DNA from: a virus
Lineage: Duplodnaviria > Heunggongvirae > Uroviricota > Caudoviricetes
Length of the DNA stretch: 41,841 nt
IMG/VR virus record: IMGVR_UViG_3300033156_001223
Location: 1-41,841 of that record
Strand: one strand, 5' to 3'
A program made the position numbers and the translations under genes. Shown piece after piece: positions 16,807 to 32,357 of the stretch (position 1 is the first letter of the stretch; each line of letters opens with the position of its first letter). The notes below the pieces were generated by a model. The model made no database searches. It was given only the letters and a program-made list of their open reading frames with translations, and was not told the origin of the DNA.

Positions 16807-17136
16807 TCAAGAAATCAAAGCCCAGCTGATTTCGACAATAGGTTCGGAAGTAGCAGTATATTGCATGGCTTGTCTTCCAATATATTGGAAGGGAACTGGG
16901 GAGGTGAGATCATAGGAATAACGAAATTGGATTTGCTGCCACAGTCTTGGTACTCTAACAGGGGCAGTAGAAATGGCTCTATTGAGCTCTGCTTCAAAAA
17001 TTTTAATCATTTCATTTGAGCCAAGCTGAAGATAGCCAAGCCATAGTTCAACGATCAGACGTCGGTCTTTGTCAGAGAGCATCCTCCAAACATCACCAAA
17101 ATAATCTAGAAGCTTATCTAAATATTCGATAATCAT
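16807..17136 (-). CDS. Short protein resembling the N-terminal domain of a large gp7-like wedge protein
   Basis: ATGA-coupled to baseplate J; DYFGDVWRMLSD...LWLGYLQ...PRLWQ resembles N-termini I recall for large-myophage wedge proteins (not searched). Confidence 0.5.
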   Translation of the reverse strand: MIIEYLDKLLDYFGDVWRMLSDKDRRLIVELWLGYLQLGSNEMIKIFEAELNRAISTAPVRVPRLWQQIQFRYSYDLTSPVPFQYIGRQAMQYTATSEPIVEISWALIS

Positions 17137-19121
17137 AGTTTTCTAGTGCTAATGGTTCCTAACATAAGATGAGCAGTCCTTGGAACAGTATAAGTATCAG
17201 TAACTATAATTGTCTCTATTTTTCTATCAGACCGATGATATTCTAGTAAAGCATATACTGGTAAAGATATATAAGTTGCACCGCTTTTGTACAAAAGATT
17301 AATTAAATCAGATATTTCTAAATCGCTTCCTGGAGTTAGAGAGATTAAAAAGTTTTGGATTAGTTGTACCGCATATTCTTCACTTAAGTTATCTCCTCGA
17401 TAGTCTACATGAGCATGGACATAAATTGGCTCGTAGGCTTTAGCTAGAGGATCAGATACTACACAGCGATACTCATCATTCTCTAAAAAGCTTTGTAAAT
17501 CAGCAACAGTCTCTGAGGTTTCATAAATAATCCTCACCGACAACCCTTCTACTGGAGTATTTAAGTCATCATAAGTCTCGGTGAATTTTAGAGTGATTCC
17601 TTCTTTTGTAGAAAAAGCATAAGATGAATCTTGAGTTTCCACCCACCAACCTTTAGCATCAATTCCTTCTACTGTGAAACTAGTATAAGCAGGAACATTA
17701 GTATTAGCATCACCAGCAGCCAAAGATTGCACTTGAATATCATAATAGTAATAAGTTATGTTTCCAAAAACTTCTCGTTGAGTGTCCATTTGTGAAGCAC
17801 TAATTACTTGCCCAGGCTGAGCAGAATCAGGATCCTGAGAGTAAGCACCTAAAGGAACATACTGATATCCATTTGATGCAGTGAAAACCATATCGGGGGT
17901 AATATTCAGATAAGTTGGTCTAGTGAAAAATAATCGTATAGTTCCCTGGGCTTTGCCAATTTCCCCACCAGTAAAATTAGTAATCGCTCTAATCCCAATT
18001 GGATCTCTTTTTGGAATGTAGATGCCAGTAGCTGATAATGTGGCTGGGTCTAGAATTTCTACGTCAATAATTCTAATTAAAGGCAGGTCAATAAGAGTAG
18101 TAACATTTCCACTATCATCTCTACTTGATAAGCTAATTTCGGTGGTGATACTAGCTAAATTAAGACTTCTCGGTTGATGATCTGAAGTTAAGGCATAAAC
18201 ATCAACCTTGTTACCAGTCTTAATATAATATTCTGGATAAGCTGCTTCTCCAGTAGCACCAGGAACATTGGTATAAATTGGGACCAAATCTCGGGTCATT
18301 TCTGGATCAGAAGCACCAACTACATTTACATATTGCACATAAGGAAAATTCTCCATTACCAGAGTTCTAATTCCTCTCTCTGTAGTGGGAGTACGTTCGG
18401 TAATGGAGTCAAGAATGCGCTGGTATAGCTCCGCATTAGTCTCCTTATCGGTTCCGTTGATAACCGGATTCGGATTGGTAACTTTTACATATCCAGTAAG
18501 ACCAGATGCGTTTACAATGGAATTAGTTCCTACATTATACTCAGTTCCGGCCTCCTCTGCTTCTACAGATACATCCACATAATAAAATCCATCCTCAAAA
18601 TTAAGAGCCATTTGATCGGAGGTTACTTGAACTGTGCTGGTAGGATAAAATTTGAGGCCATCTGAAGTACTAAAGTAGGCGGTGGGCAATATTATTACAT
18701 TAGTAGGGTTAACAAAGTAAACTCTAACGGTAGTAGTAGCTTTAGTTCCACTTCTTCTAGTAAGCAAGAAATTTGAGGCCAAAGCGTCCATTGCCTCTTC
18801 GGTGAGAGATTGATAAGCAGAAATGTCTCCACTGCGTCTTAAATTAGCTACCTCTCTACGTAAAGCAGAAATAATAAGAGACATTGGTCCTACTAGCAAA
18901 TCATAAATGGCTGTCCCAGGAACTGGGTTAATGCTTGAATCGAATGCCTTAATTTTTTCTTGTAGGAATGTGATTATATTAGTATTCTCTTCAAACGGGT
19001 CAGTCCCTAGATACTCCAAGAGAGGCTGAATTACTTTTTCATCGAACTCAGATCCTTCAGAAATATCTATTTCCGAGTTCCAATTGGAAATTAATTCTAT
19101 TATATAATCGCGAGTGCTCAT
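17133..19121 (-). CDS. Baseplate J-like wedge protein (T4 gp6 / P2 gpJ family)
   Basis: GTAIYDLLVGP, LTRRSGTKAT..V, VSVEAEEAG..YNV..NSI, NP..VINGTDKETNAEL..RI..S are typical Baseplate_J motifs. Confidence 0.85.
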   Translation of the reverse strand: MSTRDYIIELISNWNSEIDISEGSEFDEKVIQPLLEYLGTDPFEENTNIITFLQEKIKAFDSSINPVPGTAIYDLLVGPMSLIISALRREVANLRRSGDISAYQSLTEEAMDALASNFLLTRRSGTKATTTVRVYFVNPTNVIILPTAYFSTSDGLKFYPTSTVQVTSDQMALNFEDGFYYVDVSVEAEEAGTEYNVGTNSIVNASGLTGYVKVTNPNPVINGTDKETNAELYQRILDSITERTPTTERGIRTLVMENFPYVQYVNVVGASDPEMTRDLVPIYTNVPGATGEAAYPEYYIKTGNKVDVYALTSDHQPRSLNLASITTEISLSSRDDSGNVTTLIDLPLIRIIDVEILDPATLSATGIYIPKRDPIGIRAITNFTGGEIGKAQGTIRLFFTRPTYLNITPDMVFTASNGYQYVPLGAYSQDPDSAQPGQVISASQMDTQREVFGNITYYYYDIQVQSLAAGDANTNVPAYTSFTVEGIDAKGWWVETQDSSYAFSTKEGITLKFTETYDDLNTPVEGLSVRIIYETSETVADLQSFLENDEYRCVVSDPLAKAYEPIYVHAHVDYRGDNLSEEYAVQLIQNFLISLTPGSDLEISDLINLLYKSGATYISLPVYALLEYHRSDRKIETIIVTDTYTVPRTAHLMLGTISTRKL

Positions 19122-19567
19122 AATTTACTAGCAATCTCATCTATTTTCTTACTAATTTTATCCAACTCTGTTAATACTTTGGCAGCCATCTTGGAGAACT
19201 CTTTAGTCACTTCCTGATCAGCACCAGATTCTTTCTCAATCGTAACATCTCTTGCAGGTAATACTCTTATTTCTTCCTCTTCCTCAGTAGCTTTTACCCA
19301 CCCCAAAATTTTTTCAGCTAGCTCTACCAGCTGTCTCTTTGGATCCGCCGCCTTCTTCAATACAACAATCTCCTCTTCAGTAATTGGAAAATCTTCCAAA
19401 AGCTCTTTATTATCACGCATCATTAGTAACATCGCAGCATTCATAAGACCACTAAGATTAAGACCATCGATCCACATATCTTCATCATCATCAAATTCGA
19501 AGTCTTCTTGCTCTGGATCTTCCCATATCCCAGCGTGCCTTGGGTTCCATTTTTTTGGCTTCATCAT
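19118..19567 (-). CDS. Hypothetical acidic protein
   Basis: ORF track; ATGA overlaps on both sides. Confidence 0.7.
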   Translation of the reverse strand: MMKPKKWNPRHAGIWEDPEQEDFEFDDDEDMWIDGLNLSGLMNAAMLLMMRDNKELLEDFPITEEEIVVLKKAADPKRQLVELAEKILGWVKATEEEEEIRVLPARDVTIEKESGADQEVTKEFSKMAAKVLTELDKISKKIDEIASKL

Positions 19568-20094
19568 TCCTCCTCCTCTCCTTCAATTTCGAAGAAAGCC
19601 TCAATTGGCAACCCAGTAATTTCCTTATGGGCAATCCCCAACTTCAAGGCTTCCCCTTTGGTTATAATGCTACCATTTTTAAAATATTTTTCAACATCTT
19701 TTTTCTTCATTTTAGTCGACTTGCATAATATCGAGGTAATCCTACAAAAGTAATCATCTAGTTCTTTTTTTGCCCCCGGAGTCTCATTATAATCAATTTT
19801 CCCATGAACAAAGTAAGGAGAATGAAAATAGAAGACACAATGAGGTAGTGCCCATCTCTCACCACCTCCAAGATAAATAAATAAAGCAGCACTACCTACC
19901 ATGCCCCCAGCGATAGTAATCACTTTTCCGGGGTAAGCTCTTAGTAAGTCAAAGATAGCTGCTGCGATTTCGGAATCACCACCACTACTACAGATGAGAA
20001 TGTAGGCAGGATCTCCTTCGAGATCAGTTAGATAATCTACCACATATCGCAAAGTTTTTGCATCAATTTCTCCTTGGATGCTGATCATAACCAA
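19564..20094 (-). CDS. clpP: ClpP-like serine peptidase (S14)
   Basis: ISIQGEID, ICSSGGD, GSAALFIYLGG (catalytic Ser), FYFHSP (catalytic His), ITKGEALKLGI; the catalytic Asp position appears substituted. Confidence 0.85.
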   Translation of the reverse strand: MVMISIQGEIDAKTLRYVVDYLTDLEGDPAYILICSSGGDSEIAAAIFDLLRAYPGKVITIAGGMVGSAALFIYLGGGERWALPHCVFYFHSPYFVHGKIDYNETPGAKKELDDYFCRITSILCKSTKMKKKDVEKYFKNGSIITKGEALKLGIAHKEITGLPIEAFFEIEGEEEE

Positions 20095-20543
20095 ACCTCT
20101 AAAGGAAAATTAAGTCCTGCTTTAGTAATAACACTGACAATAATGTGGAGTTGGTCCTGTTCTAGAGAAAATTTTTCCAATACTAACTTCTCTAGAGTTT
20201 CTTCATCTTCCAATCCTGGGGTAAGTGCCTGCATTTCTTTGATTTTCTGTTCTAGATTGTATAGAAGTACTACAAAATCGGTTTGGATTGCTCCAATTAT
20301 TGCCGGAGATATTTGCATTCCTATCAAATCTATTAATCCTACTCCCATAGAAGTATTCATAATGTCAGACCCGGGAGCATCTAATAATCCTTTTAATATC
20401 ATCTGTACTAAAGACTGGATTCCGTCGGTAGGAGGTCGAGATGCTGTCAAGCTTATTTGGATTGGAATAGAAGTATTATCCTCCCGGGTTAGTAGTATCA
20501 ACCCGTTTTCTAAAGCATTGGAAAAGATTGGGAAGTCTTTCAT
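20085..20543 (-). CDS. Baseplate wedge / sheath-initiator protein, gp25/GPW-like
   Basis: GIQSLVQMILKGLLDAPGSDIMNTSMGVGL matches the L.Q.I...L.T.PG......FG pattern; located near baseplate J. Confidence 0.7.
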   Translation of the reverse strand: MKDFPIFSNALENGLILLTREDNTSIPIQISLTASRPPTDGIQSLVQMILKGLLDAPGSDIMNTSMGVGLIDLIGMQISPAIIGAIQTDFVVLLYNLEQKIKEMQALTPGLEDEETLEKLVLEKFSLEQDQLHIIVSVITKAGLNFPLEVWL

Positions 20544-21133
20544 TTCACTAGCCTGGTATTATCTTTTTGTAAAGTTTTTTGAGCTGTTGTAGTTATCTCG
20601 GTCTCGACCTTTGTCTCAACCGGTTGAGTCATCCAATCCTTAAACTCTCCTTTCATTTGTTGCAAACATGCATTCACAGTAGATAACACAGTAACAACTA
20701 CAGCATCTGCTTGAGATATCAGAGTCAATATTCTCCGCAAATTCGATATCCCTTTGATTTTCTTTTGAGCTTCCGGCTTATTTTTCAGTTCCTCTTCGAT
20801 TTTCTCTTTCATTTTCCCTTCTATGCTCATAACAACCTTACCTGGGAGATTGGCTAAAAAATCTTGTACTTCCTGGGCGTTTTTCTCTATCTTTTGAGCA
20901 AATTCAACTGCATCTCCCAAAATATTATTTCGTAATTCAGTCAGTGGGTCAACAAACTTAGTTTGGAAATTGTGTACATGTTCTCTAACATCTGCTAATA
21001 ACTTAAGCTTTTGTGGGTTAATATGGCACTTCTCAAGCCAAGCCTCACGCAAAGCCTGAGTATCCAATTGTCCGTCTTTCCACAGCTGTAGCTTTTGATC
21101 TTGTACACTACTTTGCTGACCTTCGTCTGCCAT
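20540..21133 (-). CDS. Hypothetical coiled-coil protein in the baseplate region
   Basis: ORF track; coupled to the gp25-like gene. Confidence 0.7.
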   Translation of the reverse strand: MADEGQQSSVQDQKLQLWKDGQLDTQALREAWLEKCHINPQKLKLLADVREHVHNFQTKFVDPLTELRNNILGDAVEFAQKIEKNAQEVQDFLANLPGKVVMSIEGKMKEKIEEELKNKPEAQKKIKGISNLRRILTLISQADAVVVTVLSTVNACLQQMKGEFKDWMTQPVETKVETEITTTAQKTLQKDNTRLVK

Positions 21134-21554
21134 ATATCTTCCTCTCTAGTTTTTTAAATTGTTTATAATTAAGTAAAGCAGCTAATACTTCAGCAGATGC
21201 TAACAATGGCAACTGCCACAACAAACTCTTCAAATTTTTCGTTTTTACTTCTCCTTTCTTAATTTTTCTAAGAGCTTCAAACAAGGCTTTACTTTTAGTA
21301 GCCTTTTTTAGAGTTCTAGTAGTAGTATAACCAGCAGCTCCCGTAATTGCTACTGGTATTGCTGCAGTAATAGCCAAATTTTGTATTATATCCTTTTTGT
21401 ATTTGTCAAAGATTTCATCACCAAGCTTTTTCCCGTAATAATTTCTAAGATCTTGTCTGATAGCACTATAAAGAATGGGAGAGGCTATTACTACGTCTAG
21501 GGGCAGAGGAGATAAAGCTTGGCGGATAAGAGTATACGTAGTTGACTTCTGCAT
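21108..21554 (-). CDS. Basic protein with Ala-rich hydrophobic segments; apparently leaderless
   Basis: AITAAIPVAITGAAGY and LLASAEVLAALL segments, Lys-rich; no SD, TGCTATAAT 8 nt upstream. Confidence 0.65.
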   Translation of the reverse strand: MQKSTTYTLIRQALSPLPLDVVIASPILYSAIRQDLRNYYGKKLGDEIFDKYKKDIIQNLAITAAIPVAITGAAGYTTTRTLKKATKSKALFEALRKIKKGEVKTKNLKSLLWQLPLLASAEVLAALLNYKQFKKLERKIYGRRRSAK

Positions 21555-21562
21555 TATAGATA

Positions 21563-21571
21563 ATTATAGCA
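21563..21571 (-). promoter_or_regulatory. Extended -10 TGCTATAAT, leaderless geometry
   Basis: Perfect TGnTATAAT, 8 nt before ATG 21554, just below a terminator. Confidence 0.7.
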
Positions 21572-21594
21572 TAGCCGTATCAAGTGAGGTAGCT

Positions 21595-21628
21595 AAAAAG
21601 AAGGGGGAGATCACCCCTCCCCCTTCTT
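21595..21628 (-). terminator. Intrinsic terminator after the Clp ATPase gene
   Basis: AAGAAGGGGGAG-GGGTGAT-CTCCCCCTTCTT-TTT: 12-bp stem, 7-nt loop, U-rich tail; overlaps the TGA stop. Confidence 0.8.
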
Positions 21629-23569
21629 AGTTACTATAAGTTCTCCATTATCCACCTTTACCTGAATATTCTCTACTACTTCACGTACCAAGATCCCTGC
21701 TGCAGGATTCAAAATCTTATCAGTTATTACCCGCAACAATGGTCTAGCTCCTAACTCTGGCTGATAACCATGTTCAATCAGGTAACCTACTACTTCATCG
21801 TCATACTCTAGAGCTACTCCTTCCCTACCCAACACTTCCGCAACCTTATTAAGATGGTATTTGGCAATCTCAGCAAGCACATCCCGGGTCAGACTCTTGA
21901 ACAGGATTACCGAATCAATCCTGTTCAAAAACTCCAATCTTAGGTTCTTAGATAAGAAAGTTAGAACTTTTTCGTATTGTTTATCATAGTTCTCGTCATT
22001 GACTTCTCCCAGAGTATTTGTCAAGAAGTTAGAGGTGAATATGATTATGCAGTTACTGAAATCAACCATGTTACCCCTACCATCCGTCATCCTTCCATCT
22101 TCTAGCATGTCTAACAAAGCAGAAGTAACTGTTGAGGCCGCCTTATCAATCTCATCTAACAACACTACACAGTAGGGGTTCTTGCGAACCGCTTCAGTAA
22201 GTTGGCCGCCTTCTTCGTAACCAACATAGCCAGGAGGAGAGCCATATAGACGAGAAACTGAGTGAGGTTCAATATACTCAGACATATCAATTCTCACTAG
22301 CTTTGTTTCATCTCCAAACATTGCTTCGGCCAAGGCTTTGGCAGTCTCAGTTTTCCCCACTCCAGTAGGCCCTACAAATAAGAAATTGGCTACAGGTCTG
22401 TGACGGTAGTGTAGACCAAGTCGTCCTCTTCTCACTGCATCTGCCAATCTCTCAATCGCATGATCCTGTCCTTTTACTCTTTCCTTTAATGTCTCTTCCA
22501 GCCTCGAGAGCTTCTCCTTTTCACTAGCGGTGATACGGTGGACAGGTATCTTCGACTTCTTAGCAACTACCCACGCTACATCCATACTAGTTACTGTAGA
22601 TTGGAAAACATTGGAACTGATATGATTCAGAATATCTTGGAAGATTTTTCTAGCTTTTTGTTCACTAACCTGTTTGGCTTCTTCCAACTTAGCAAACAGG
22701 TCACTATCTTGCACTCCATAATTGAGTAAGACCATTTCCAATGTTTCACAGATATCAGCGACTGTTATATCCTGATTTTCTATTAAAGATGGAATATCTA
22801 AATTGAGAAGTTGAGATCTCGTTCTAACTAAAGCCATAGATTGATCCATCACATCAATAGCCTTAGCTGGAAGATTGGCATCATGAATAAAACGAGAAGA
22901 TAAAGTAGCACATGTAACCAAAACCTCATCTGACACTGAGATGCCATGAAATTCCTCATAAAGATGTTTTATTCCACGAAGAATTTCAGTGCATTCGGCA
23001 ATGGACGGTTCATAAACAAAAACCGGCTGTAAACGGGCTACCAATGCTCTATCTTCTTGTAAATGCCTTCGGAAATCATCGTATGTAGTAGCAAATATCA
23101 TCTTTGAGGTATTAAAGGCCAATTTTGACTTGAACATTTCAGTAATAGGAAGATCACCCTTTGCTTTGGTTAACTGATGGAATTCGTCGATAAATAAAAC
23201 TGCATTTTCATTCAATCCCATCTGCTCAAACAGAGTATTGACCCGATTTTCTACTTCTCCTTTTGCACATGCTCCTGCTAGAATTGAAGAGGCGTCGATC
23301 TGGTATATTGTCCAATCTTTCATGTAAGAAGGAACTTTTCCCTCTAGAATTCGAAAAACTAGTGCATGTACCACACTAGTTTTACCTACTCCGTGCTCAC
23401 CCAGAATCAAGGGGATGTTCCTCTTTCTTCTGCTCAAAACGTGTATTAACTGATTAACCACTTCATCCATCCCAATTACTGGATCAATCAATCCATCTTG
23501 GCAGGCCTCATTCAAGTTTAAGCAGATTTGATCCAGATTCATTTGACCAAGCTTGGCCTCCAACTCCAT
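21611..23569 (-). CDS. Clp/Hsp100 class-1 AAA+ ATPase (ClpA/B/C-like) without N-terminal domain
   Basis: NBD1 GEHGVGKT and LFIDEFH; NBD2 GPTGVGKT, RIDMSEY, PPGYVGYEEGGQLTEAVR, LLDEIDKA, GARPL; starts directly at the LD...A..G.IDPVIG segment. Confidence 0.92.
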   Translation of the reverse strand: MELEAKLGQMNLDQICLNLNEACQDGLIDPVIGMDEVVNQLIHVLSRRKRNIPLILGEHGVGKTSVVHALVFRILEGKVPSYMKDWTIYQIDASSILAGACAKGEVENRVNTLFEQMGLNENAVLFIDEFHQLTKAKGDLPITEMFKSKLAFNTSKMIFATTYDDFRRHLQEDRALVARLQPVFVYEPSIAECTEILRGIKHLYEEFHGISVSDEVLVTCATLSSRFIHDANLPAKAIDVMDQSMALVRTRSQLLNLDIPSLIENQDITVADICETLEMVLLNYGVQDSDLFAKLEEAKQVSEQKARKIFQDILNHISSNVFQSTVTSMDVAWVVAKKSKIPVHRITASEKEKLSRLEETLKERVKGQDHAIERLADAVRRGRLGLHYRHRPVANFLFVGPTGVGKTETAKALAEAMFGDETKLVRIDMSEYIEPHSVSRLYGSPPGYVGYEEGGQLTEAVRKNPYCVVLLDEIDKAASTVTSALLDMLEDGRMTDGRGNMVDFSNCIIIFTSNFLTNTLGEVNDENYDKQYEKVLTFLSKNLRLEFLNRIDSVILFKSLTRDVLAEIAKYHLNKVAEVLGREGVALEYDDEVVGYLIEHGYQPELGARPLLRVITDKILNPAAGILVREVVENIQVKVDNGELIVTKKGEG

Positions 23570-23622
23570 TATTTCCCTCCTTTAATTAATTTTTACCCAA
23601 ACAGACTTTCTGACTCTAAGAT

Positions 23623-25389
23623 TTAGCCAAGACTTTCTTTGATCTCTGAGGATATTAAATCCCACAGACTGTTAAGAGAGGTGAGATCGTTAATGGATAA
23701 ATTAAAAAGGTCTTGATACTTGCCATCAAACAATAAATCTTTAATGCGAGTAGCTCCCATGTCTTCCACGGACCATAATAAATTATTTACTTGGTGATTC
23801 TCTGGAATTAGAAATTCTTGACAGTACTGTCTAACGTCTTGGAGTAAAGTAAGCTTGCTATCTAAATCTGAAATGATTTCCGAACAATATCTATCTCTTT
23901 CTTCTTTATACTGCCTCCATGCATTGGACATCCGAAATTGGTTTTGGCTATTTTCCTCCTCATCAAGCATTTTTAGAGTAAAATTAATCATCCTAGTTAA
24001 ATTGTTTATCAATTTACTGAGCGAATTGGCTGTGAAAATGTCCAATATTTTATAACGAAAAATTCGAATAATTGACCAAAGGTGCCCCCAATATTTGCTT
24101 CCGTTTCTATAAACAATTGCTCCGTAAGTCCCGTTGGGTATTTCCAATACTCTATCTAAAACTATCACTCCTTCCTCTTCATCAATCGCTTTGACTTCGA
24201 ATGAGCCAACACTAAATTCCCTCTCCAAACTTACTCCGCTCACTGGATGAGTAGTAGTTGGGATTAATAAAGTTCCATCATCAAGTTTAAGACTACCAAC
24301 CATAAATCGGTCACCAACCTGAATATTCTCAGTAGATATTTTCACTATACTACTACCATCATAGCAAGAGCAGCTACCTTCATAAACTGTAATTCCTTTA
24401 ACACTTATTGGAGTACTTAATGTTTCCAAGGCCTGCTTCCCTGTTGCAAAATATTTCAAAATTTCCTCTACTCTCTCACTCACTTTATCAAAAGTATCTC
24501 CAGAAGATATTAAACTCATCAAGGAATCAAACTTAGGAAGAATAATGTTACTGATCCTTTTTGCTAGGCTCCCCCCAATTTCTTCAAATTCCTCCAAAGA
24601 TTTTTCTAATCTATCTACCAACTCTATTAAGGTTGCCCATTGTCTTTGGAGCTTGACAAGAAGATCACGAACATTAGTTAACCTAGTAATAAAAGATTGT
24701 AGTAACGATTGTAGTACCTCACTGGTATTACCTAATAAATTTACGACCGCTTGAAATCCAGTAGCAGTAGTCATTCCGGTCAGAAGTGAGGTTAGATTAA
24801 CTTGTCGGCGCAGAAATGTTGATTGTTTAGGAGTATCCAATCGGGATGATTTGAGTAGACTGGTAGCAGACTTAAGCTTCTGAATCGTATCAATAATCTC
24901 ATCCAGAAGGGGAATGATTTTGTGATGGAGTAGAATAGAGGCAAGATATACTGCGGCATGGGCTTCCCCATTCTCCTCCACATCAAAAGCGAAGACTGTA
25001 ACAATATTCTCCAACAACTCTTCAAGCTGTTCAGTGTAACCAGGAAGAGGACCAGGTGGTATTTCGATTACTTTAGAGACAAAAAACTGTAGAATCTCCT
25101 GTACTTTGCTCTTGGTGATATCTACTACGTTATTACTGGTGAGTTGGGTATAGATGTCATCTACTAATTTATCAACATTTTGAGGAGAGAAATTCTTTCG
25201 CTGGCTTTCTATTTCCCCAAACAAGGCTTCTAGTATTTTAATTTTGATATTTAAAAATTCTTGTAGTTTCCCCAGAGTTCCTGAAGAAAGTTGAGAAATA
25301 TCACGTAGTTGTACAAACTTACGAACTTGAGGGAGGGCCTGTTGAGCTTGAGCTAGTAATTGCTGTTCTAAATCCGATAGATCTAGCAT
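23623..25389 (-). CDS. Large mostly helical hypothetical protein with a central beta-rich insertion
   Basis: 588 aa ORF; heptad-rich flanks and beta-like segment about aa 330-430. Confidence 0.7.
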   Translation of the reverse strand: MLDLSDLEQQLLAQAQQALPQVRKFVQLRDISQLSSGTLGKLQEFLNIKIKILEALFGEIESQRKNFSPQNVDKLVDDIYTQLTSNNVVDITKSKVQEILQFFVSKVIEIPPGPLPGYTEQLEELLENIVTVFAFDVEENGEAHAAVYLASILLHHKIIPLLDEIIDTIQKLKSATSLLKSSRLDTPKQSTFLRRQVNLTSLLTGMTTATGFQAVVNLLGNTSEVLQSLLQSFITRLTNVRDLLVKLQRQWATLIELVDRLEKSLEEFEEIGGSLAKRISNIILPKFDSLMSLISSGDTFDKVSERVEEILKYFATGKQALETLSTPISVKGITVYEGSCSCYDGSSIVKISTENIQVGDRFMVGSLKLDDGTLLIPTTTHPVSGVSLEREFSVGSFEVKAIDEEEGVIVLDRVLEIPNGTYGAIVYRNGSKYWGHLWSIIRIFRYKILDIFTANSLSKLINNLTRMINFTLKMLDEEENSQNQFRMSNAWRQYKEERDRYCSEIISDLDSKLTLLQDVRQYCQEFLIPENHQVNNLLWSVEDMGATRIKDLLFDGKYQDLFNLSINDLTSLNSLWDLISSEIKESLG

Positions 25390-25426
25390 GCTAATTCCAT
25401 ATTATAAGATATTAATGTCAGTGTTG

Positions 25427-25504
25427 CTAGCCGGTTAGAAGATCGTAGTGCTCAAGTAAGATATAACGAATTGGCTCAGTTAATATTGTTTTGCCACTTA
25501 TGTT
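25427..25504 (-). pseudogene. Orphan C-terminal remnant of an array-3 paralog
   Basis: Translates NISGKTILTEPIRYILLEHYDLLTG-stop; 11/16 identical to LTKLLRDILLKHYDLL at the end of the adjacent gene; no start codon. Confidence 0.75.
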
Positions 25505-25528
25505 CTATATGAAGGATCTGGGTGGTTC

Positions 25529-26212
25529 TTAATAAATCAAGAGGTCATAATGTTTGAGTAGGATATCACGGAGAAGTTTGGTTAGCTTAATTATGGAATT
25601 TTTATTATGATAGGCTAGAAGTTTATTAGCAAAAGCCTCATATGGATAGGGTAATAAATATCTACCTACACTCCTCCTAGTGCGTAGTATATAGGCTATA
25701 TCTGACTTACCAAACTTAATCGCAACTTTTCTGAACTCAGGCCACGGAGAAAAATTCCATACAATATATTCAATATATACTTCACACTCCTCTTTTCCTA
25801 CTTTTGAATATATGTCATATATTCTTATCATATTTGAATCTTCATCTTCAGGCCTATAGAAATTTTCGGGGGTAAGCTCAAAGTATTTACTAATAGAGTG
25901 ATGGGGTTCCTTCAGACTAATAGCACCTCGACAAATAGCGAAATAATATTTGTCTAATTGGTCTTTTGGCCGTGAAACAAGCCCAATTGGGTTAAACTTT
26001 GCCTCTTCATCTTTCAAATCCACATCCAGTAATAATAGGTAAGGATCGTTCGACTCAGTAAAGATATGAAGGGTGTCTTGTCTATAATTGTTATCAAATA
26101 GGTAGTCTACATGGATGGTTCGATGTTGATAGGATGGAGGAACACCACCTCTAGGTGGCTCCTCAATCATTTTTGTTATTATTGGGTATCGTCTGTGTTC
26201 CTCTACTCTCAT
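25529..26212 (-). CDS. Array-3 paralog, hypothetical
   Basis: Start moved from 26236 to ATG 26212 (MRVEEH; SD AGGAGGA); C-terminus PYEAFANKLLAY...LLRDILLKHYDLL. Confidence 0.8.
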   Translation of the reverse strand: MRVEEHRRYPIITKMIEEPPRGGVPPSYQHRTIHVDYLFDNNYRQDTLHIFTESNDPYLLLLDVDLKDEEAKFNPIGLVSRPKDQLDKYYFAICRGAISLKEPHHSISKYFELTPENFYRPEDEDSNMIRIYDIYSKVGKEECEVYIEYIVWNFSPWPEFRKVAIKFGKSDIAYILRTRRSVGRYLLPYPYEAFANKLLAYHNKNSIIKLTKLLRDILLKHYDLLIY

Positions 26213-26222
26213 TTTAATCCTC

Positions 26223-26909
26223 CTATGGTAATGCACTTAATAGAAAATCATAATTATTGAAAAGAATGTCTCGTAAGAGTTCTGGAAGTATAAAGAATTG
26301 GTTATCTCTATAAGCTAGGAGCTTCCCGGCAGCTTCAATATATGGCATACCAAGAATCTGTACCTGACTCTTTTCCTTTACTCTCATATCACAGTAACTT
26401 GTAAAATCTGATCCGTCTACTGTAATAAATGCAAATGGCATACTTATAATTGCTTCGTAGTCATATATCTTATAATAAAACATAACCATTTTGAGCCGGT
26501 CATCATAAAGCTCAGTCTCTAATGTTGAAACTAGGATCCCAGAAAAATTTTTGTCTTCACATCGATAATACTCATTCAGATCGGTTATAGTTTGAGGCCT
26601 ATCAGATGACATATGGAAATGTGCAGTAACCGCAGCACGACAAACAGCAAACCGATGGGTTATATAGACTTCTTCAGCATCCAAAATATTCAATAGCTTA
26701 TAAGGATATGCTGTGTTCTCAGTAAAATAAAGCCAACTTACTATGGCCTTGTCAAAATATTTGTCTAATTTGAAACTAGCGCGAAAACCTTTACCTCTGT
26801 ACACATACTCAACATGGAAGACTTGATGAGAAGCACCATCTTCATCTGTCCTTTTTCTCTCTAGAATTACTTTTCGTAGGGCCAAACAGTTATGGTCTTC
26901 TACTCTCAA
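26223..26909 (-). CDS. Array-3 paralog, hypothetical
   Basis: Start moved from GTG 26918 (which lies inside the SD AGGAGGTG) to TTG 26909, giving MRVEDH; C-terminus PYIEAAGKLLAY...LLRDILFNNYDFL. Confidence 0.8.
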   Translation of the reverse strand: MRVEDHNCLALRKVILERKRTDEDGASHQVFHVEYVYRGKGFRASFKLDKYFDKAIVSWLYFTENTAYPYKLLNILDAEEVYITHRFAVCRAAVTAHFHMSSDRPQTITDLNEYYRCEDKNFSGILVSTLETELYDDRLKMVMFYYKIYDYEAIISMPFAFITVDGSDFTSYCDMRVKEKSQVQILGMPYIEAAGKLLAYRDNQFFILPELLRDILFNNYDFLLSALP

Positions 26910-26921
26910 TTTAGGCACCTC

Positions 26922-27608
26922 CTAATTGACACGATATAGGAAATCGAAAAAGTAGAGTAACATATTCCAAATCTCGATAGATATTCCTATTCTATTGTGA
27001 TAACGTGTGTGTTCCTTGATTTTATCTGCAAATACTTCATAGGGAATATCCACGATTTGAACCCTGCAATAGGGGCCTTTTGATACTGTTTGATGAAGAT
27101 GATCATTATCAAGCTTATTTACCACAAGAGAGGCCTTATGAAGTGAATCAAAGGAATCCCACGAACTTTTATATATAATATGGAACACAGAGTGATCTTC
27201 AGTAACCTTCTCTAAATCAGTCGCCCATATTTTAATATTTTGAATTGCCACATCTTTCTTGAGACTAGATATATCATTCTCTGTAAGGGTTCTATATTTA
27301 GAATCCATATTATTTAATACAGCTTTGCAATGTACTATTCCTCGATGTGAAACTCCAACTTCTAAACTCGCTGGCAGATCTACTACCTTCTGAAACCTTC
27401 GTATACACCCAGATTGGTAATCATATTCGATTATTCCCAATTCGTAGAGTTCTAAGCGGAAAGAATAGAAACTATATACGGTTTTACGATAAACTTCACC
27501 ACATTGTTTATATTCAGCATAGTAAATGGAGAGTGGATGAAACTCGTCATGAACTACTTTAGTTATCTTCGGGGTAGGCGACGGACCTATATGATTTTCT
27601 ACTCGCAT
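26922..27608 (-). CDS. Array-3 paralog, hypothetical
   Basis: MRVENH start (no SD); PYEVFADKI and C-terminal LLYFFDFL. Confidence 0.75.
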   Translation of the reverse strand: MRVENHIGPSPTPKITKVVHDEFHPLSIYYAEYKQCGEVYRKTVYSFYSFRLELYELGIIEYDYQSGCIRRFQKVVDLPASLEVGVSHRGIVHCKAVLNNMDSKYRTLTENDISSLKKDVAIQNIKIWATDLEKVTEDHSVFHIIYKSSWDSFDSLHKASLVVNKLDNDHLHQTVSKGPYCRVQIVDIPYEVFADKIKEHTRYHNRIGISIEIWNMLLYFFDFLYRVN

Positions 27609-28276
27609 TTATAACTTGGTATAGGAGACAACAATACTGAAGTAGATAAATTTGTACCAAGACTAATTAACTCTGCAATGATATCATCATTTTCTTCGTT
27701 ATGAACCTCAAAGAGTTCAATTCCAAGATCATCTAATGAAAAAAGGCGTGGACGAAAAATCAATGAAGCCTCCCTTGTAGTAAAACTGGGAATTTCATGG
27801 TAGATGATAGTCAAACGAGTAGTTTCGGGCTCCTCATATCTGTATATAATATTGTGGATACAGATTATTTTATTGTTCTCATCTAACTCAATTGGTGGTG
27901 CATCAGCATCTACGACCCACAAAGCATCCTCACCAGACTCAGTTGATAATATCATTTGAAGGGTATACCCAAAATGCTTAAAGTAAACATCACGTTTATT
28001 AGTAGTAATTTTAGTTTGTAAATTCGGTGCAGAGGAAGGAGTGCTATAAACTACTCTTCCGAATTCTAATATATCATTATTCGGAGGTACAGGTTTATAC
28101 CATATTCTTTTGTAAATGCTAGCAATATTCTTATCTCCTTCCATGTCAATATACTCTATATGCCCGATTCGTACTTCTGATGATGTTTTTTCATCTTTTA
28201 CCCACGGCTCAAGAATCATGCCTTGAATTCTCTCTATTGTACGGAGATGTTTTTGGGTATGGTCAACAACTCGCAT
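27599..28276 (-). CDS. Array-3 paralog apparently lacking the family C-terminal helix
   Basis: MRVVDHTQ; close to 28321..29043 (EPW, RI.H..YID..G.K...S.YK); SD GGAGGGG. Confidence 0.75.
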   Translation of the reverse strand: MRVVDHTQKHLRTIERIQGMILEPWVKDEKTSSEVRIGHIEYIDMEGDKNIASIYKRIWYKPVPPNNDILEFGRVVYSTPSSAPNLQTKITTNKRDVYFKHFGYTLQMILSTESGEDALWVVDADAPPIELDENNKIICIHNIIYRYEEPETTRLTIIYHEIPSFTTREASLIFRPRLFSLDDLGIELFEVHNEENDDIIAELISLGTNLSTSVLLSPIPSYKCE

Positions 28277-28320
28277 AATTTCCCCTCCAATCGTTATCTT
28301 GGAAAGAAATTGACAAGCCC

Positions 28321-29043
28321 CTATTCAAGTAGCCAGTAATAACATTGGAAGAGCAGCTGTCTCAAGGTTCCAGTCAATAAAGGAATGTTGCTCTTAAATA
28401 AAATTTCTTTTACTGTTGTAAGATTCTCAAAAGAATCACATTCACACTGGAGCTCGGTTCTGCAATTTCCTTGCTCATCAAAGATCCTACACATAAAGTT
28501 TCTTATACTCTCGGGGACTATAGCTAGTGTTACTTCCTCTTCGTCATCACCATTAGAAGGAATACAATAATACTTAAGATTTATCATAAAAAGCCCATCT
28601 GCTGCTGAAGATGGATTTTCATAATTTAGCTCAACGACATTGATAACTGGTATTACAAGGTGTTCATATTCCTGAAAAATATGTGGACCCAACTTCTCAG
28701 TTACTGGTAAGTCAATATTTTTATCTGCCTCCAAGCTCAATACTAATAAACAGACAATTGCTTGGTTAAACAGTATACCGGTGTTATGAGAGGCATGAGT
28801 CAGAATAAGTTTAGGGCGAAGAACTGGTACGACATGATCAAAATCTACTCTACCAAGCACCAACGTATCATTATAATTTTGCATTAATTTGTAGAAGCTG
28901 CCTTGGCGTCTCTTACCCTTATCGTCAATATACTGTGCGTGGGCAATTCTAATATCATCGATCAAACCATCACTAGCAATTCTTCTCCATGGTTCAGAAA
29001 TCACCTTCTCCAATCTTATTTGTGTATGACTCACTACTTTCAT
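28321..29043 (-). CDS. Array-3 paralog, hypothetical
   Basis: MKVVSHTQ; SD GGGAGG; C-terminus LTGTLRQLLFQCYYWLLE. Confidence 0.8.
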   Translation of the reverse strand: MKVVSHTQIRLEKVISEPWRRIASDGLIDDIRIAHAQYIDDKGKRRQGSFYKLMQNYNDTLVLGRVDFDHVVPVLRPKLILTHASHNTGILFNQAIVCLLVLSLEADKNIDLPVTEKLGPHIFQEYEHLVIPVINVVELNYENPSSAADGLFMINLKYYCIPSNGDDEEEVTLAIVPESIRNFMCRIFDEQGNCRTELQCECDSFENLTTVKEILFKSNIPLLTGTLRQLLFQCYYWLLE

Positions 29044-29075
29044 CCTCTTTCCTCCCTTAATAATTATTCCTCACC

Positions 29076-29084
29076 TTTATACCA
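29076..29084 (-). promoter_or_regulatory. Extended -10-like TGGTATAAA heading array 3
   Basis: In the divergent intergenic region, T-rich upstream, about 32 nt above ATG 29043. Confidence 0.45.
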
Positions 29085-29094
29085 CAAAATTGAT

Positions 29095-29125
29095 TTGACT
29101 TTTCATAAACTTTCGTTATCATAAT
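29095..29125 (+). promoter_or_regulatory. Putative sigma70/sigmaA-type promoter for the only plus-strand gene
   Basis: TTGACT (29095-29100) with TATCAT at 16-nt spacing or CATAAT at 19-nt spacing; ATG at 29135 has no SD. Confidence 0.45.
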
Positions 29126-29134
29126 TGACAAATA

Positions 29135-29560
29135 ATGTGCTTTGACATCGACTATTTTTCATTCGATGTCTCGGCTGGTAGAAAGAAGGGAGATGATGGG
29201 TTATCAGAAATCAAAGCTTTATATGCCGCGATCATAGACCAGGCAATACGAGACTATCTTGCTTATAAGAATCCAAAAAATATAAACAAAAAATCAGTTG
29301 TAAAGAGAGGAGAAGAGGCAGAGATCTGGCTCTTCTATGAGACTGTAGACAATTTACCAGAATTATATCAGTTCGAAAATGAGAAAGAGATAAAGTTAGC
29401 AAGGTTTACTTGCTTTGAAAACCTATGCCAAATATTGGGATGGTCACCAGAATGGGTAAGAAGGAAAATATGGGAGCTCGAAGACAATGGACAATACTAC
29501 AAACTAGGAAGGAGAAGAGGTTGTGTGTTTGAGCCGGGTGAAGATGATTTCGAACTATGA
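29135..29560 (+). CDS. Conserved-looking hypothetical protein, possibly regulatory
   Basis: ALYAAIIDQAIRDY...AEIWLF...FENLCQILGWSPEWVRR resembles a widespread small phage/bacterial family I recognise by pattern but cannot name reliably. Confidence 0.65.
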   Translation: MCFDIDYFSFDVSAGRKKGDDGLSEIKALYAAIIDQAIRDYLAYKNPKNINKKSVVKRGEEAEIWLFYETVDNLPELYQFENEKEIKLARFTCFENLCQILGWSPEWVRRKIWELEDNGQYYKLGRRRGCVFEPGEDDFEL

Positions 29561-29561
29561 T

Positions 29562-30140
29562 TCAGAAAGTTTTTTCTATTTCTTTCCAAGTTTGCCTACT
29601 AACTTCTCCTAGTCTTAAAAGAACTTCTTTTGGATTTGCTCTTGTTTCCTGTTGAATTTGACGCATGATTTTCTCATAAAGTTGTGGTGATTCCTTCCGC
29701 AGAAGTCTAAGGAACCTAATCAATGCCAAACTCTCCCCAAGATAGGCTTCTCTTTCCCACATTCGACTAAATTTTGATATTAAAATCTCTTCAGGTAACG
29801 AAATTCCCCGTCTTCGTAACTCTCGGGCTACTCGAGCATAAGTCTTGGTCGGCTGCTTAGTATGGATAGCTTCATGTAGCAGAATCCTAAGTTGTTCATG
29901 CGCTGGGAGACTCTTTACTATGTAAATACTTTTGCCACGAAGTTCTCCCCCAGAGGGGGATCCTGTTATGTATGATAAGTCTTTGATTCCGGCCTTTCTC
30001 AGCTCCTTTAATAGTTTCTTGCTGGGAGGTATCTGTTTCTTAAGTTTTATTTTTTTCACTCCACGAACTATCCCAAGCTCTTTTAAGATTTTGAAAACTT
30101 TTTTTATATCTTTTGGTGAAAGTTGTGATAATTTTTTCAC
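29562..30140 (-). CDS. Highly basic HExxH zincin-motif protein
   Basis: RILLHEAIH then WEREAY; Lys/Arg-rich; GTG directly after the amidase stop. Confidence 0.6.
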   Translation of the reverse strand: MKKLSQLSPKDIKKVFKILKELGIVRGVKKIKLKKQIPPSKKLLKELRKAGIKDLSYITGSPSGGELRGKSIYIVKSLPAHEQLRILLHEAIHTKQPTKTYARVARELRRRGISLPEEILISKFSRMWEREAYLGESLALIRFLRLLRKESPQLYEKIMRQIQQETRANPKEVLLRLGEVSRQTWKEIEKTF

Positions 30141-30698
30141 TTAATTCCCCCAACAGTCAATGGCAAAAGCAATCGAATCCGCCAAAATTATTTGATTACC
30201 ACGATTATTAATCCACTTTTCTTCAAATGGGTTAGTAAGAAATAGTGGCTCTACCAATATTGCCGGTGAAATGGTATGTCGTAGCACATAGAAACTTTTC
30301 TCTGCCTTTACTCCTCTTGACGGGAATGGTAGCTGCTTTTTGAAGTATTTTGCTACTTGCTTTGCTAATTTCTCCCCAGGAATGCTTCCTGGATAATGGT
30401 AAACTTCCCAACCTCCTACCCCCTTATCATGGAAAGCATTGAAATGAATAGAGACAAAGCAAAATGTCTTAGATTTACTATGTTTAGATACTATTGTATT
30501 AGCAAAATTGGTTCTACTAGTTAAAGATACAAAAATATCTTCGTCTCTTGTCATATATACTATCCATCCCCACTCTTCCAAAATGTCTTTTACTTTCCTA
30601 GCAATAATTAAATTGATATCTTTCTCTAAGAATATTGCACCTCTGGCACCGGGGTCTTGGCCTCCGTGCCCAGGATCTAATATTGCTATTCTACTCAT
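30141..30698 (-). CDS. N-acetylmuramoyl-L-alanine amidase (Amidase_3), catalytic domain only
   Basis: ILDPGHGGQDPGA, LEKDINL, VYMTRDED, FVSIHFNA, FYVLRHT.SPAILVEP: Zn ligands and catalytic Glu present. Confidence 0.92.
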   Translation of the reverse strand: MSRIAILDPGHGGQDPGARGAIFLEKDINLIIARKVKDILEEWGWIVYMTRDEDIFVSLTSRTNFANTIVSKHSKSKTFCFVSIHFNAFHDKGVGGWEVYHYPGSIPGEKLAKQVAKYFKKQLPFPSRGVKAEKSFYVLRHTISPAILVEPLFLTNPFEEKWINNRGNQIILADSIAFAIDCWGN

Positions 30699-31644
30699 TG
30701 GTTAAATCTATTGGTTGATAATTATCAATTGCCAAGTCTAGAAGTTCTGTCAGAGAAATTACTTCCTGATCAGTTGGCACTCTGACAATCACTGAATTTT
30801 TCTTAGTAATAATTTCCACAAGGCTGTCTGGAACTAAAGGAAAAGTAATAGTTCCATCTATTCCACTATAATAGACTTTCTTATCCCCCATAATGAAGTT
30901 TTGACCAACCACTCTTCCAAAATCTCGATTAATGATGGTAACTGGAGCCCAGGCTTTAGGAGATCCATCAACATTAAGAAATCGCCCAGTGACTGCACAA
31001 GTATTTGTAGGAATAACTACTCCAAGTATTTCAATACTAATAGTCTTATATAAAACGGGGCGAGCTATTGAGACAAAAATACCAGTAGAAGTAATTTCGC
31101 TAGGTGAATAAGTGATTCCATATACTCCAGCTCCTTTTTCTTTGAAAACATCAGATTTTAAATATTTAGTATGAAGTACTCCATTACCAGTAATATACAT
31201 TGCTTCCACTTCATCATGAGTAAGCCCCAACAAAGGATTCCCATTATCATCTACTAGAGTATGTAAAACTTCAATTGGGCTTCCTAAAGTAATGTATTTT
31301 GTAACTTGTACGGCTTCTTCCTCTATTACTTCAAAAGCTTCAATAATAGTCGGATAAGGAATAATTGCCTCTCCGTTATAATTGGCATAGACCCTTGCTG
31401 TAACTGTGCCGAGGGAGTAATTCGAGATATCAATATTGGAAATGTAGAGATAGGCACCCTCTGAGTCTGTACCTTTCTGGATTGGTGGGGAGGAGTAAAT
31501 AGTAGCAGTAAATCTCGAGCTGCCATCACTGTCGTAGAACTCTACATAAAGAGTATTATCCCAGTCTGGAAAGATATAATTTCCAGAAGAATCCTGAATA
31601 CGAAAATCAAAGAATGCCTTTTGGTCTCTGGTGTATTGATTCAT
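30691..31644 (-). CDS. Beta-rich (Ig/transthyretin-like) probable virion protein
   Basis: C-terminal CAVTGRFLNVDGSP....V...SGIDGTITFPLVP..VRVP resembles carboxypeptidase-regulatory/BppU-like beta-sandwich modules. Confidence 0.45.
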   Translation of the reverse strand: MNQYTRDQKAFFDFRIQDSSGNYIFPDWDNTLYVEFYDSDGSSRFTATIYSSPPIQKGTDSEGAYLYISNIDISNYSLGTVTARVYANYNGEAIIPYPTIIEAFEVIEEEAVQVTKYITLGSPIEVLHTLVDDNGNPLLGLTHDEVEAMYITGNGVLHTKYLKSDVFKEKGAGVYGITYSPSEITSTGIFVSIARPVLYKTISIEILGVVIPTNTCAVTGRFLNVDGSPKAWAPVTIINRDFGRVVGQNFIMGDKKVYYSGIDGTITFPLVPDSLVEIITKKNSVIVRVPTDQEVISLTELLDLAIDNYQPIDLTNE

Positions 31645-32357
31645 TAAACACTCCTATATTGCAAATACCTTTGAATTTTAAGAGCTATATTCTTTTTTAT
31701 TCTGCTAACTGCAGATGGACTCTTTTTCAGTTTAGCTGCTATCTCTTGAGTAGACAATTGAGACCTACCACCTACTCCTAGAGTGTATTCATAGACCAAT
31801 CTCTCTTCAGGAGTAAGATCCCAGTAAATTAGTTGTAAAAGCTCTTCTGCTCTACTCTTTCCACCAATCTCTCCAACCATTTCTGGATCCAAAGTATGTG
31901 GAACATCTATCCCTCTGAGCTCAGATTCCATTCTTTCTACTTCCCGTATTGGCCACTTTAGCCTTTCGGACAATTCCTGAATGTTGGGCTCTCTTCCAAG
32001 AGTTTCTTGAAGTTCGGTGTAGGCATTGCGGTATAGTTGGATTCTTCTTCTCCTATGTTCTGGTATATGGAGAATGTTTTGATGAGTTCCTACATAGCGA
32101 GAAAGCCCCATAAGATGATAATAAACATGAGTACCAAGAGTAGTCCCCCGACGAGGGTTGTAGGTTTTAAAAGCGTTGATTGCCAGTCTCTTAGCCTCAA
32201 TTTCCAACAAATCTCTAGGAACAGCTGCACCATGGAATTTATTAACAGCCTTTTGTATCATAGGATGGAAACTATCCAATAATCTTTGGAGATTCTCGTC
32301 GGTAGGGTACCTCTTCCAGCGTTTCCATAATTCGAGCTGTCGTTCGGATCGAAGCAT
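31644..32357 (-). CDS. RNA polymerase sigma factor, sigma-70 family (SigF/SigB/FliA-like architecture)
   Basis: Region 2 AFKTYNPRRGTTLGTHVYYHL, ILHIPEH, region 3 LGREPNIQELSERL, region 4 HTH LSTQEIAAKLKKSPSAVSRIKK. Confidence 0.85.
   Translation of the reverse strand: MLRSERQLELWKRWKRYPTDENLQRLLDSFHPMIQKAVNKFHGAAVPRDLLEIEAKRLAINAFKTYNPRRGTTLGTHVYYHLMGLSRYVGTHQNILHIPEHRRRRIQLYRNAYTELQETLGREPNIQELSERLKWPIREVERMESELRGIDVPHTLDPEMVGEIGGKSRAEELLQLIYWDLTPEERLVYEYTLGVGGRSQLSTQEIAAKLKKSPSAVSRIKKNIALKIQRYLQYRSV

Follow-up and report, generated by a model that had tools for sequence, protein, structure and literature searches.

A Clp/Hsp100-type ATPase and a ClpP-like protein, both without recognizable docking elements, encoded in the late tail and baseplate region of an uncultured large phage

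The window analyzed here, a stretch of 41,841 nucleotides, covers the opening 41.8 kb of an IMG/VR record (IMGVR_UViG_3300033156_001223) that is 142.6 kb long and represents an uncultured large phage. Within a block of tail and baseplate genes on its minus strand, it encodes a class-I Clp/Hsp100 two-ring ATPase of 652 residues (21611..23569) and a ClpP-fold Ser-His peptidase candidate of 174 residues (19564..20088, in an open reading frame spanning 19564-20094), hereafter the ClpP-like protein. A first-pass annotation, made from the DNA alone, had described these as a divergent ClpP and Clp ATPase, and as a possibly private chaperone-protease pair. Both genes could be confirmed, and both are atypical and lineage-specific. 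At the level of sequence, neither side shows any of the tested features by which a docked pair of Clp ATPase and ClpP is defined. As each protein lacks the parts by which its relatives normally dock, the two probably work separately, and with roughly even confidence we read the ATPase as a stand-alone unfoldase and the ClpP-like protein as an ATPase-independent peptidase with an accessory or morphogenetic role, both being late accessories specific to this lineage.

The two genes are real and under purifying selection. Compared with the related contig L007, the ATPase has a ratio of nonsynonymous to synonymous substitution rates (dN/dS) of 0.067 and the ClpP-like protein one of 0.062. The start of the latter is the ATG at position 20088, which overlaps the stop codon of the upstream gene as ATGA and has an AGAGG nine nucleotides upstream; the resulting length of 174 residues agrees with the database record. 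Three related metagenome contigs (L003, L007, and L008) encode ATPases that are 76-78% identical to that of the window, and a synteny survey showed that the late tail and baseplate gene order is kept in all three: a gene for a protein of 588 or 589 residues, the ATPase gene, genes for proteins of 148, 197, and 152 residues, the ClpP-like gene, a gene for a protein of 141 or 149 residues, the gene for baseplate protein J, and a gene for a protein of 109 residues. The ATPase and ClpP-like genes are thus separated by the three genes for 148, 197, and 152 residues, as originally described.

The ATPase carries the features that define the class-I Clp/Hsp100 superfamily, namely two AAA+ modules (D1 and D2), each with a Walker A motif (residues 57 and 400) and a Walker B motif (residues 124 and 468), together with AAA_lid_9 and ClpB_D2-small; the Pfam domains AAA, AAA_lid_9, AAA_2, and ClpB_D2-small all scored above cut-off. 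It has no N-domain, as the first-pass annotation had stated: residues 8-12, where it starts to align with PDB and NCBIfam models, correspond to residue ~160 of ClpB, ClpC, and ClpA, and the open frame is only 656 residues long. No Clp_N domain was detected in it by Pfam. In L007 and L008, an extra gene for a protein of approximately 100 residues lies between the 589-residue gene and the ATPase gene, and these upstream proteins are neither Clp_N-like nor ClpS-like.

When compared with 1.8 billion representative proteins, the ATPase reaches no more than ~40-44% identity to any of them outside its own lineage, and the top named matches are ClpB proteins from many phyla. Membership in the named families was rejected, as the scores fell below every cut-off: 620 against 1232 bits for ClpB (TIGR03346), with the match split in two at the M-domain, 556 against 993 for ClpA, 524 against 885 for ClpV (TIGR03345), and 488 against 1900 for ClpG. 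From the D1 lid to the start of D2 the ATPase has 132 residues, a ClpC-like length, compared to at least 150 in ClpB-like sequences, and a search of PDB with residues 236-350 found no match for the insert of ~70 residues at the M-domain site. Among PHROG families, phrog_4871 matches the ATPase at 2.4e-193. The top scores after the close relatives belonged to 2 proteins with three AAA modules (P0009 and P0010), which were discarded because they are encoded by cellular genes in unrelated contexts.

In D2, the segment between the TSN and FxPEFxNR motifs is 28 residues long and contains no [ILVM]G[FYL] tripeptide. Cellular homologs fall into two classes in this respect: those with a segment of 35-44 residues have IGF, LGF, or VGF, and a ClpB-like class with 26-29 residues has none. 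The [LIV]G[FL]-bearing helix-loop-helix insertion for ClpP docking, on which the assignment of ClpA, ClpC, and ClpE rests, is absent from D2 of the ATPase. The first-pass annotation had placed an LGE at the position of the docking loop. This LGE is present at residues 521-523, but as the insertion that bears such a tripeptide is missing, it is not a mutated docking tripeptide.

A survey of IMG/VR yielded at least 554 viral contigs encoding a relative of the ATPase, and the best 80 of these (L021-L100) were analyzed. More than 70 of the 80 phage ATPases belong to one clade, nearly all of them with a segment of 36-40 residues carrying VGF, IGF, or LGF, in contrast to the 28 residues and missing tripeptide seen here. 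In a tree with these 80, the lineage of the window forms a separate long branch outside the clade. Absence of the N-domain is more widespread, as about a quarter of the 80 also appear to lack it. The clade itself is a large monophyletic group of ClpC-like phage ATPases of ~670 residues. A ClpP gene was found within 10 kb in only 2 of the 80 loci, suggesting that most phages of this clade may use the ClpP of their host.

Among characterized families, the ATPase shares with ClpB, ClpL (6lsy/6lt4), ClpG, and ClpK the two AAA+ rings, AAA_lid_9, D2-small, and a short segment without docking tripeptide. It is ~40% identical to ClpB and aligns in one stretch to the 6lsy/6lt4 chain and to the ClpG and ClpK models. 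It differs from all of these in lacking the N-domain and a coiled-coil M-domain of ClpB length, and in having lost the D1 tyrosine and the first arginine finger. ClpC, ClpA, ClpE, and phrog_4871 belong to the same superfamily, and residues 11-640 of the ATPase could be aligned in one stretch to residues 162-795 of the ClpC-type chain 6em8.

D2 is canonical throughout, with Walker A and B motifs, the GYVG pore loop, sensor-1, the arginine finger, and the GAR motif. The pore-1 aromatic residue is thus intact in this ring, while in D1 it has been replaced by alanine: as the first-pass annotation had pointed out, the D1 pore loop reads GACAKGE (residues 99-105) and has no tyrosine. This position is aromatic (Tyr or Phe) in 135 of 145 other homologs and Ala in the clade of the window. 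In the same clade, the RR pair of D1 has become AR, with loss of the first arginine finger (Arg in all 145 others), and Gly159, in a near-invariant column, has become Phe or Leu. In ClpA, the D1 pore tyrosines are required for direct engagement of substrates, while unfolding is carried out by D2 (PMC8666677). Given these roles, the loss of the D1 tyrosine suggests that the phage ATPase may be driven by its D2 ring and depend on help for engaging substrates. As a stand-alone Hsp100-type unfoldase, it would have a complete motor in D2 and a D1 that, with its Walker A and B motifs intact, could bind ATP, but that would lack both the tyrosine that grips the substrate and one trans-arginine. A partner would probably be needed to hand over substrates, which the ATPase might then thread or remodel in the manner of ClpB, ClpL, or ClpG.

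The ClpP-like protein is truncated at the side where an ATPase would bind. The Pfam family CLP_protease (PF00574) matches it at 1.7e-17 (64.3 bits against a cut-off of 20.2), over profile positions 18-177 only. Solved ClpPs align with it only from their chain residue ~32-36 onward, and the protein itself begins at strand 1. The axial loops and helix A, which in ClpP make up the gate and part of the surface for ATPase docking, are therefore missing. According to one study (PMC4416901), it is the axial loops and a hydrophobic patch of ClpP that mediate ATPase binding. The fold itself is that of ClpP, with an AlphaFold2 (AF2) model at a predicted local distance difference test score (pLDDT) of 87 that matches solved ClpPs at template modeling (TM) scores of 0.81-0.83. 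The family is rare, with four close and about twenty distant homologs among 5.8 billion proteins, and the protein ends in an acidic C-terminal tail.

Ser66, which is the serine of GSAA, and His89 (numbered along the 174 residues) are invariant in 22 homologs, down to 22% identity. The column of the triad aspartate holds Gly in all four members of the window's clade, where it falls in the sequence KNGSIITKGEA, Glu in all four members of a sister clade, and Asp in 11 others. The earlier description of a ClpP-like protein that keeps its serine and histidine with the aspartate replaced was therefore accurate. Assignment as a canonical ClpP (TIGR00493) was rejected, as the protein scores 22.5 against a cut-off of 308.6 and its Ser-His-Asp triad is incomplete.

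The presence of Gly in place of the catalytic Asp in all four clade members could also mean that the ring formed by this protein is catalytically dead and serves the baseplate or tail as a structural or binding component, or else acts on host Clp ATPases as a decoy. Co-translation with structural genes (see below) would fit such a role. In addition, one of the structures matched in the fold search is a Listeria ClpP1 whose entry title reads “N165D mutant” (4jcr, root-mean-square deviation 1.3); this paralog has a triad Asn by nature and is poorly active alone. We nevertheless regard a dead ring as highly improbable, since serine and histidine are conserved without exception, the sister clade retains an acidic residue at the aspartate position, and Ser-His dyads suffice in other phage proteases. 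A ClpP-like protein without N-terminal loops would moreover make a poor ATPase decoy. Under the favored reading as an ATPase-independent peptidase, the protein, having no axial gate, would cut unstructured polypeptides without the help of an ATPase. What the analysis establishes is that the genes are real, how they are built and which motifs they lack, the layout of the operon, the insertion described below, and the absence from relatives; our statements on oligomeric state, catalytic activity, and substrates are inferred.

The arrangement of transcription signals also sets the two genes apart. A terminator-like hairpin followed by a T-run, found by a pattern scan (21595..21623, minus strand), overlaps the stop codon of the ATPase gene. 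Despite saturation at synonymous sites, L003, L007, and L008 retain both the hairpin and the T-run. Eight nucleotides before the ATG of the 148-residue gene lies an extended -10 promoter-like motif, TGCTATAAT (21563..21571, minus strand); the sequence TG[C/T]TATAAT (TGnTATAAT) is invariant between the ATPase gene and the 148-residue gene in all four contigs. A Shine-Dalgarno sequence is absent before the latter, and a transcript starting at this gene would probably be leaderless. As a conserved terminator and promoter lie between them, the ATPase gene appears to end one transcription unit, while the ClpP-like gene belongs to the next.

Within this second unit, 4-nucleotide ATGA overlaps join the genes for the 197- and 152-residue proteins, the ClpP-like protein, the 149-residue protein, J, and the 109-residue protein, so that the ClpP-like gene is translationally coupled to baseplate genes. 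The first-pass annotation had placed it between genes for J and gp25. The first of these neighbors was confirmed as a baseplate J-like wedge protein of 662 residues (17133..19121, minus strand; Pfam PF04865 at 9e-14, phrog_6 at 1e-30), but a gene for an acidic protein of 149 residues (19118..19567, minus strand; 37 D/E) intervenes, overlapping both the ClpP-like gene and J as ATGA. This protein evolves fast, with 42-49% identity between contigs versus 78-90% for its neighbors and a dN of 0.56 versus 0.06-0.19, and has a near-invariant C-terminal segment.

The identity of the other neighbor as gp25 was not confirmed by Pfam. The protein of 152 residues (20085..20543, minus strand) is conserved and is the positional counterpart of gp25/W, but Pfam GPW_gp25 (PF04965) matched neither this protein by hmmscan nor any part of the genome in a six-frame search. 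Rather, it resembles the structural protein that precedes J in the Salmonella phage Arash (gp12) and the Vibrio phage D181 (D181_0013), with a moderate hhalign match (probability 74%, E 2.8e-5). An AF2 model of the 152-residue protein, based on four sequences, reached a pLDDT of only 37 and was unusable.

In Arash and D181, the homolog of the 152-residue protein (165-168 residues; annotated as “structural protein” in Arash) directly precedes J. As the gp12-like gene abuts J in both phages, the ClpP-like gene and the 149-residue gene represent a two-gene insertion between genes that are adjacent there. No match to a ClpP-family gene was found in either the Arash or the D181 genome, and none to a Clp ATPase in the Arash genome. 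In Arash (L102, 11892-15058), an annotated sigma-factor gene lies two genes upstream of J, and D181 (L103) has the same order as judged by gene size. In the window (17133-32357), ~12 kb separate the sigma-like gene from J, and this interval contains the endolysin gene, a five-gene array, the 588-residue gene, and the genes for the ATPase, the 148- and 197-residue proteins, the ClpP-like protein, and the 149-residue protein. In our interpretation, the ClpP-like gene would have arrived together with the gene for the acidic 149-residue protein, between the gp12-like wedge gene and J. Given this insertion among baseplate genes and the joint translation with them, a late or virion protein is the most likely substrate, and this could be the 149-residue neighbor.

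A specific form of this idea is that the ClpP-like protein and the acidic protein constitute a module of protease and substrate or scaffold inserted in the wedge operon, either as the tail-side counterpart of the pair found in heads or to process an acidic protein that is carried in the tail and injected, with the ATPase unfolding in trans. We consider this quite unlikely. Less likely still is that the ATPase reads the phage's own ubiquitin-like tags. The ubiquitin-like cassette proteins of the phage showed no co-occurrence with the open reading frames flanking 80 other phage Clp ATPases, nor with those of the three related contigs or the window.

The same arrangement can be compared to a head module, in which the ClpP-like protein would be the head-maturation protease and the 149-residue protein the scaffold, both housed in the baseplate operon, with the ATPase being unrelated. 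The order of a protease, an acidic fast-evolving protein, and a large structural protein does resemble such a module. The ClpP-like protein matches head-maturation protease families of PHROG (phrog_94 at 3.6e-11, phrog_1684, and phrog_2976), and like these and NF045542 it retains the Ser and His and lacks the N-terminal gate region. The match to NCBIfam NF045542 (Clp_rel_HeadMat) spans the whole domain (positions 3-163 of 165), but with 33.6 bits it is far below the cut-off of 120. The structural genes of this phage are dispersed, with the capsid gene at 57 kb, that for the sheath at 50 kb, and that for the terminase at 111 kb, and no other convincing head protease was found: a frame of 469 residues (60095-61504) has only a PHROG match at 4e-5 and gave no match in PDB, Pfam, or NCBIfam. 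However, the ClpP-like gene lies between baseplate genes rather than portal and capsid genes, being ATGA-coupled to the former with the capsid gene 37 kb away, and its aspartate has been replaced by glycine. In addition, Arash and D181, whose terminase and baseplate are of the same lineage, lack any ClpP-family gene, and the closest outgroup ClpP-like genes lie between those for DnaB and ligase. A role as head protease is therefore, in our view, very unlikely.

These outgroup ClpP-like proteins (26-31% identity) are encoded in replication modules, either flanked by DnaB and ligase or surrounded by small early genes, and no ATPase gene was found near them among the genes called in those fragments. 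Two phage contigs (L017:8976-9491 and L018:6376-6972) encode short, N-terminally truncated ClpP-like proteins in which the triad Asp is replaced by Glu; the genes are flanked by those for a DnaB-like helicase and a DNA ligase. Both contigs also carry a Phi812-type tail tube gene. The ClpP-like protein of Phass-1, although 30% identical, was not retained as an informative relative, as its gene adjoins that for ribonucleotide reductase in a recoded phage.

The proposal of the first-pass annotation, a private and non-canonical machine, can be weighed against this background. Here, an ATPase hexamer would bind a ClpP-like ring via a new interface and feed it tail, baseplate, or tagged proteins. 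The genes are real, lineage-specific, and syntenic, lying three apart in all four lineage members, and both experience similar purifying selection (dN/dS 0.06-0.07). Their shared absence from Arash fits a joint gain, and true phage pairs of ATPase and ClpP exist, both in our survey (L059 and L081) and in Atu_ph07 and RaK2-like phages (PMC6102473). Nonetheless, we judge such a machine unlikely. The docking-loop insertion is missing from one protein and the N-terminal loops and helix A from the other, whereas neither partner departs from the canonical form in L059 and L081. The genes are separated by a conserved terminator and promoter, the ClpP-like gene was inserted with the 149-residue gene and not with that for the ATPase, and the outgroup ClpP-like genes lie in replication modules, with no ATPase gene called nearby. 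Finally, no ClpP-family gene is involved when the nearest cultured relatives build the same baseplate, and in Arash there is no Clp ATPase either.

The pairs in L059 and L081 differ from the genes of the window in context as well. Their ClpP is full-length (Pfam positions 5-181 and 192 bits in L059) and is encoded among nucleotide-metabolism genes. In L059 (8094-16468; also in L081), the IGF-bearing ATPase and the ClpP are accompanied by two thymidylate-synthase-like genes, a cytidylyltransferase, and a 2OG-Fe(II) oxygenase, followed by a collagen-repeat protein of 1102 residues.

Several observations weigh against the reading of two proteins that act separately. All four known members of the lineage have the ATPase and ClpP-like genes close together, and since terminators can leak, this adjacency makes a functional link possible. 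The conserved synteny is shallow, as all relatives with the same order are close (76-90% identity). The loss of the interface on both sides could also mean that a new, co-evolved interface has formed. With regard to the peptidase, the triad aspartate has been lost, as have, probably, the flanking Asp and Arg positions of the “oligomerization sensor”; the ClpP-like protein may therefore be weakly active or inactive. The genome is, moreover, ~78% complete by the CheckV estimate. A complex prediction with two copies of the ClpP-like protein and ATPase D2 (residues 330-652) scored 0.00, which carries no weight either way.

The remaining genes around the two proteins offer few family matches. Upstream of the ATPase gene lies that for a mostly helical protein of 588 residues (23623..25389, minus strand; 589 residues in L007 and L008), which may be tape-measure-like or another tail protein; it has a dN/dS of 0.04 and no Pfam, PHROG, or NCBIfam match. 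The baseplate unit opens with a gene for a basic protein of 148 residues (21108..21554, minus strand; 30 K/R) with three hydrophobic segments and no family match. This may be a membrane protein, which would be unexpected at the head of a baseplate unit. It is followed by a gene for a protein of 197 residues (20540..21133, minus strand) that is rich in K, E, and Q and has no significant family match. The run of overlapping genes ends with that for a protein of 109 residues (16807..17136, minus strand; dN/dS 0.05), ATGA-coupled to J.

The genome has a GC content of ~38% and nearly all genes on the minus strand, and most of its proteins have no PHROG or Pfam family match. Recognizable late genes in the window include an amidase endolysin (30141-30698) and a sigma-like factor (31644-32357). 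The tail sheath (49645-51342), an HK97-fold capsid protein (57066-58067), and the large terminase (110902-112494) are encoded outside the window, and between the sheath gene and the capsid region lies a gene for a transposase of 401 residues on the minus strand (52477-53682, or L011:12477-13682; phrog_506, E 1e-130). By terminase and J, the nearest cultured relatives are the orphan Salmonella phage Arash (PMC10585845) and the Vibrio phages D69, D148, and D181, at ~25-29% identity. J itself is 90% identical in the related contigs, its best cultured matches being Arash gp13, phage G gp188, and D181. A megablast of positions 17000-24000 against phage records gave no match, and searches of viral contigs with a single ClpP-like sequence, a single ATPase sequence, or a J alignment yielded no relatives.

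Two arrays of five small paralogous genes each were also found in the window, at 25529-29043 and 78-2367. M[KR]VxxH is found at the N-terminus, or close to it, in at least 8 of these 10 frames. Of the upstream array, which comprises five copies in the window, L007 and L008 have only two (240 and 220 residues).

An ATPase beside baseplate genes of the contractile-tail type is also known from ClpV/TssH and from Afp15/Pvc15, and the first-pass annotation had drawn on these analogies. They found no support. ClpV recognizes the contracted sheath via its N-domain, and a ClpV-like role in sheath recycling was rejected, as the phage ATPase has no such domain and falls below the cut-off of the ClpV model. 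The Afp15/Pvc15 ATPases are Cdc48-like, not Hsp100-like. Class-I Clp ATPases have, on the other hand, been annotated in many cultured jumbo phages (GAP32, 121Q, RaK2-like phages, MIJ3, CBB, and Atu_ph07), and the ClpA-like proteins of these (GAP32 gp229, 121Q, RaK2-like, Atu_ph07 gp292) are 34-37% identical to the ATPase of the window. In GAP32, the gene for gp229 lies beside genes for a tail sheath stabilizer and a long tail fiber, similar to the position of the window's ATPase near tail genes. In contrast to the arrangement described here, ClpP and ClpS of jumbo phages are encoded elsewhere in the genome, and ClpP has not been reported inside a baseplate operon. Atu_ph07 encodes seven Clp-family proteins, for which it was suggested that they might play a part in assembling virions or in host proteostasis (PMC6102473). 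No functional tests of phage-encoded Clp ATPases and ClpP-like proteins were found in the literature searched.

Phage Clp ATPases and ClpPs are thus already known and widespread; what is new is the loss of docking elements from both proteins and the insertion in a baseplate operon. The lineage represents a natural dissection of a Clp system, with a motor that has neither docking loop nor N-domain and a ClpP with neither gate nor catalytic Asp, both of which are under selection. If the two act apart, phages can reuse Clp parts as a free unfoldase and an ATP-independent peptidase. If they bind, this would involve a new kind of interface between ATPase and ClpP. Either outcome would also reveal whether a protease of their own is ever employed by contractile tails, as it is by heads.

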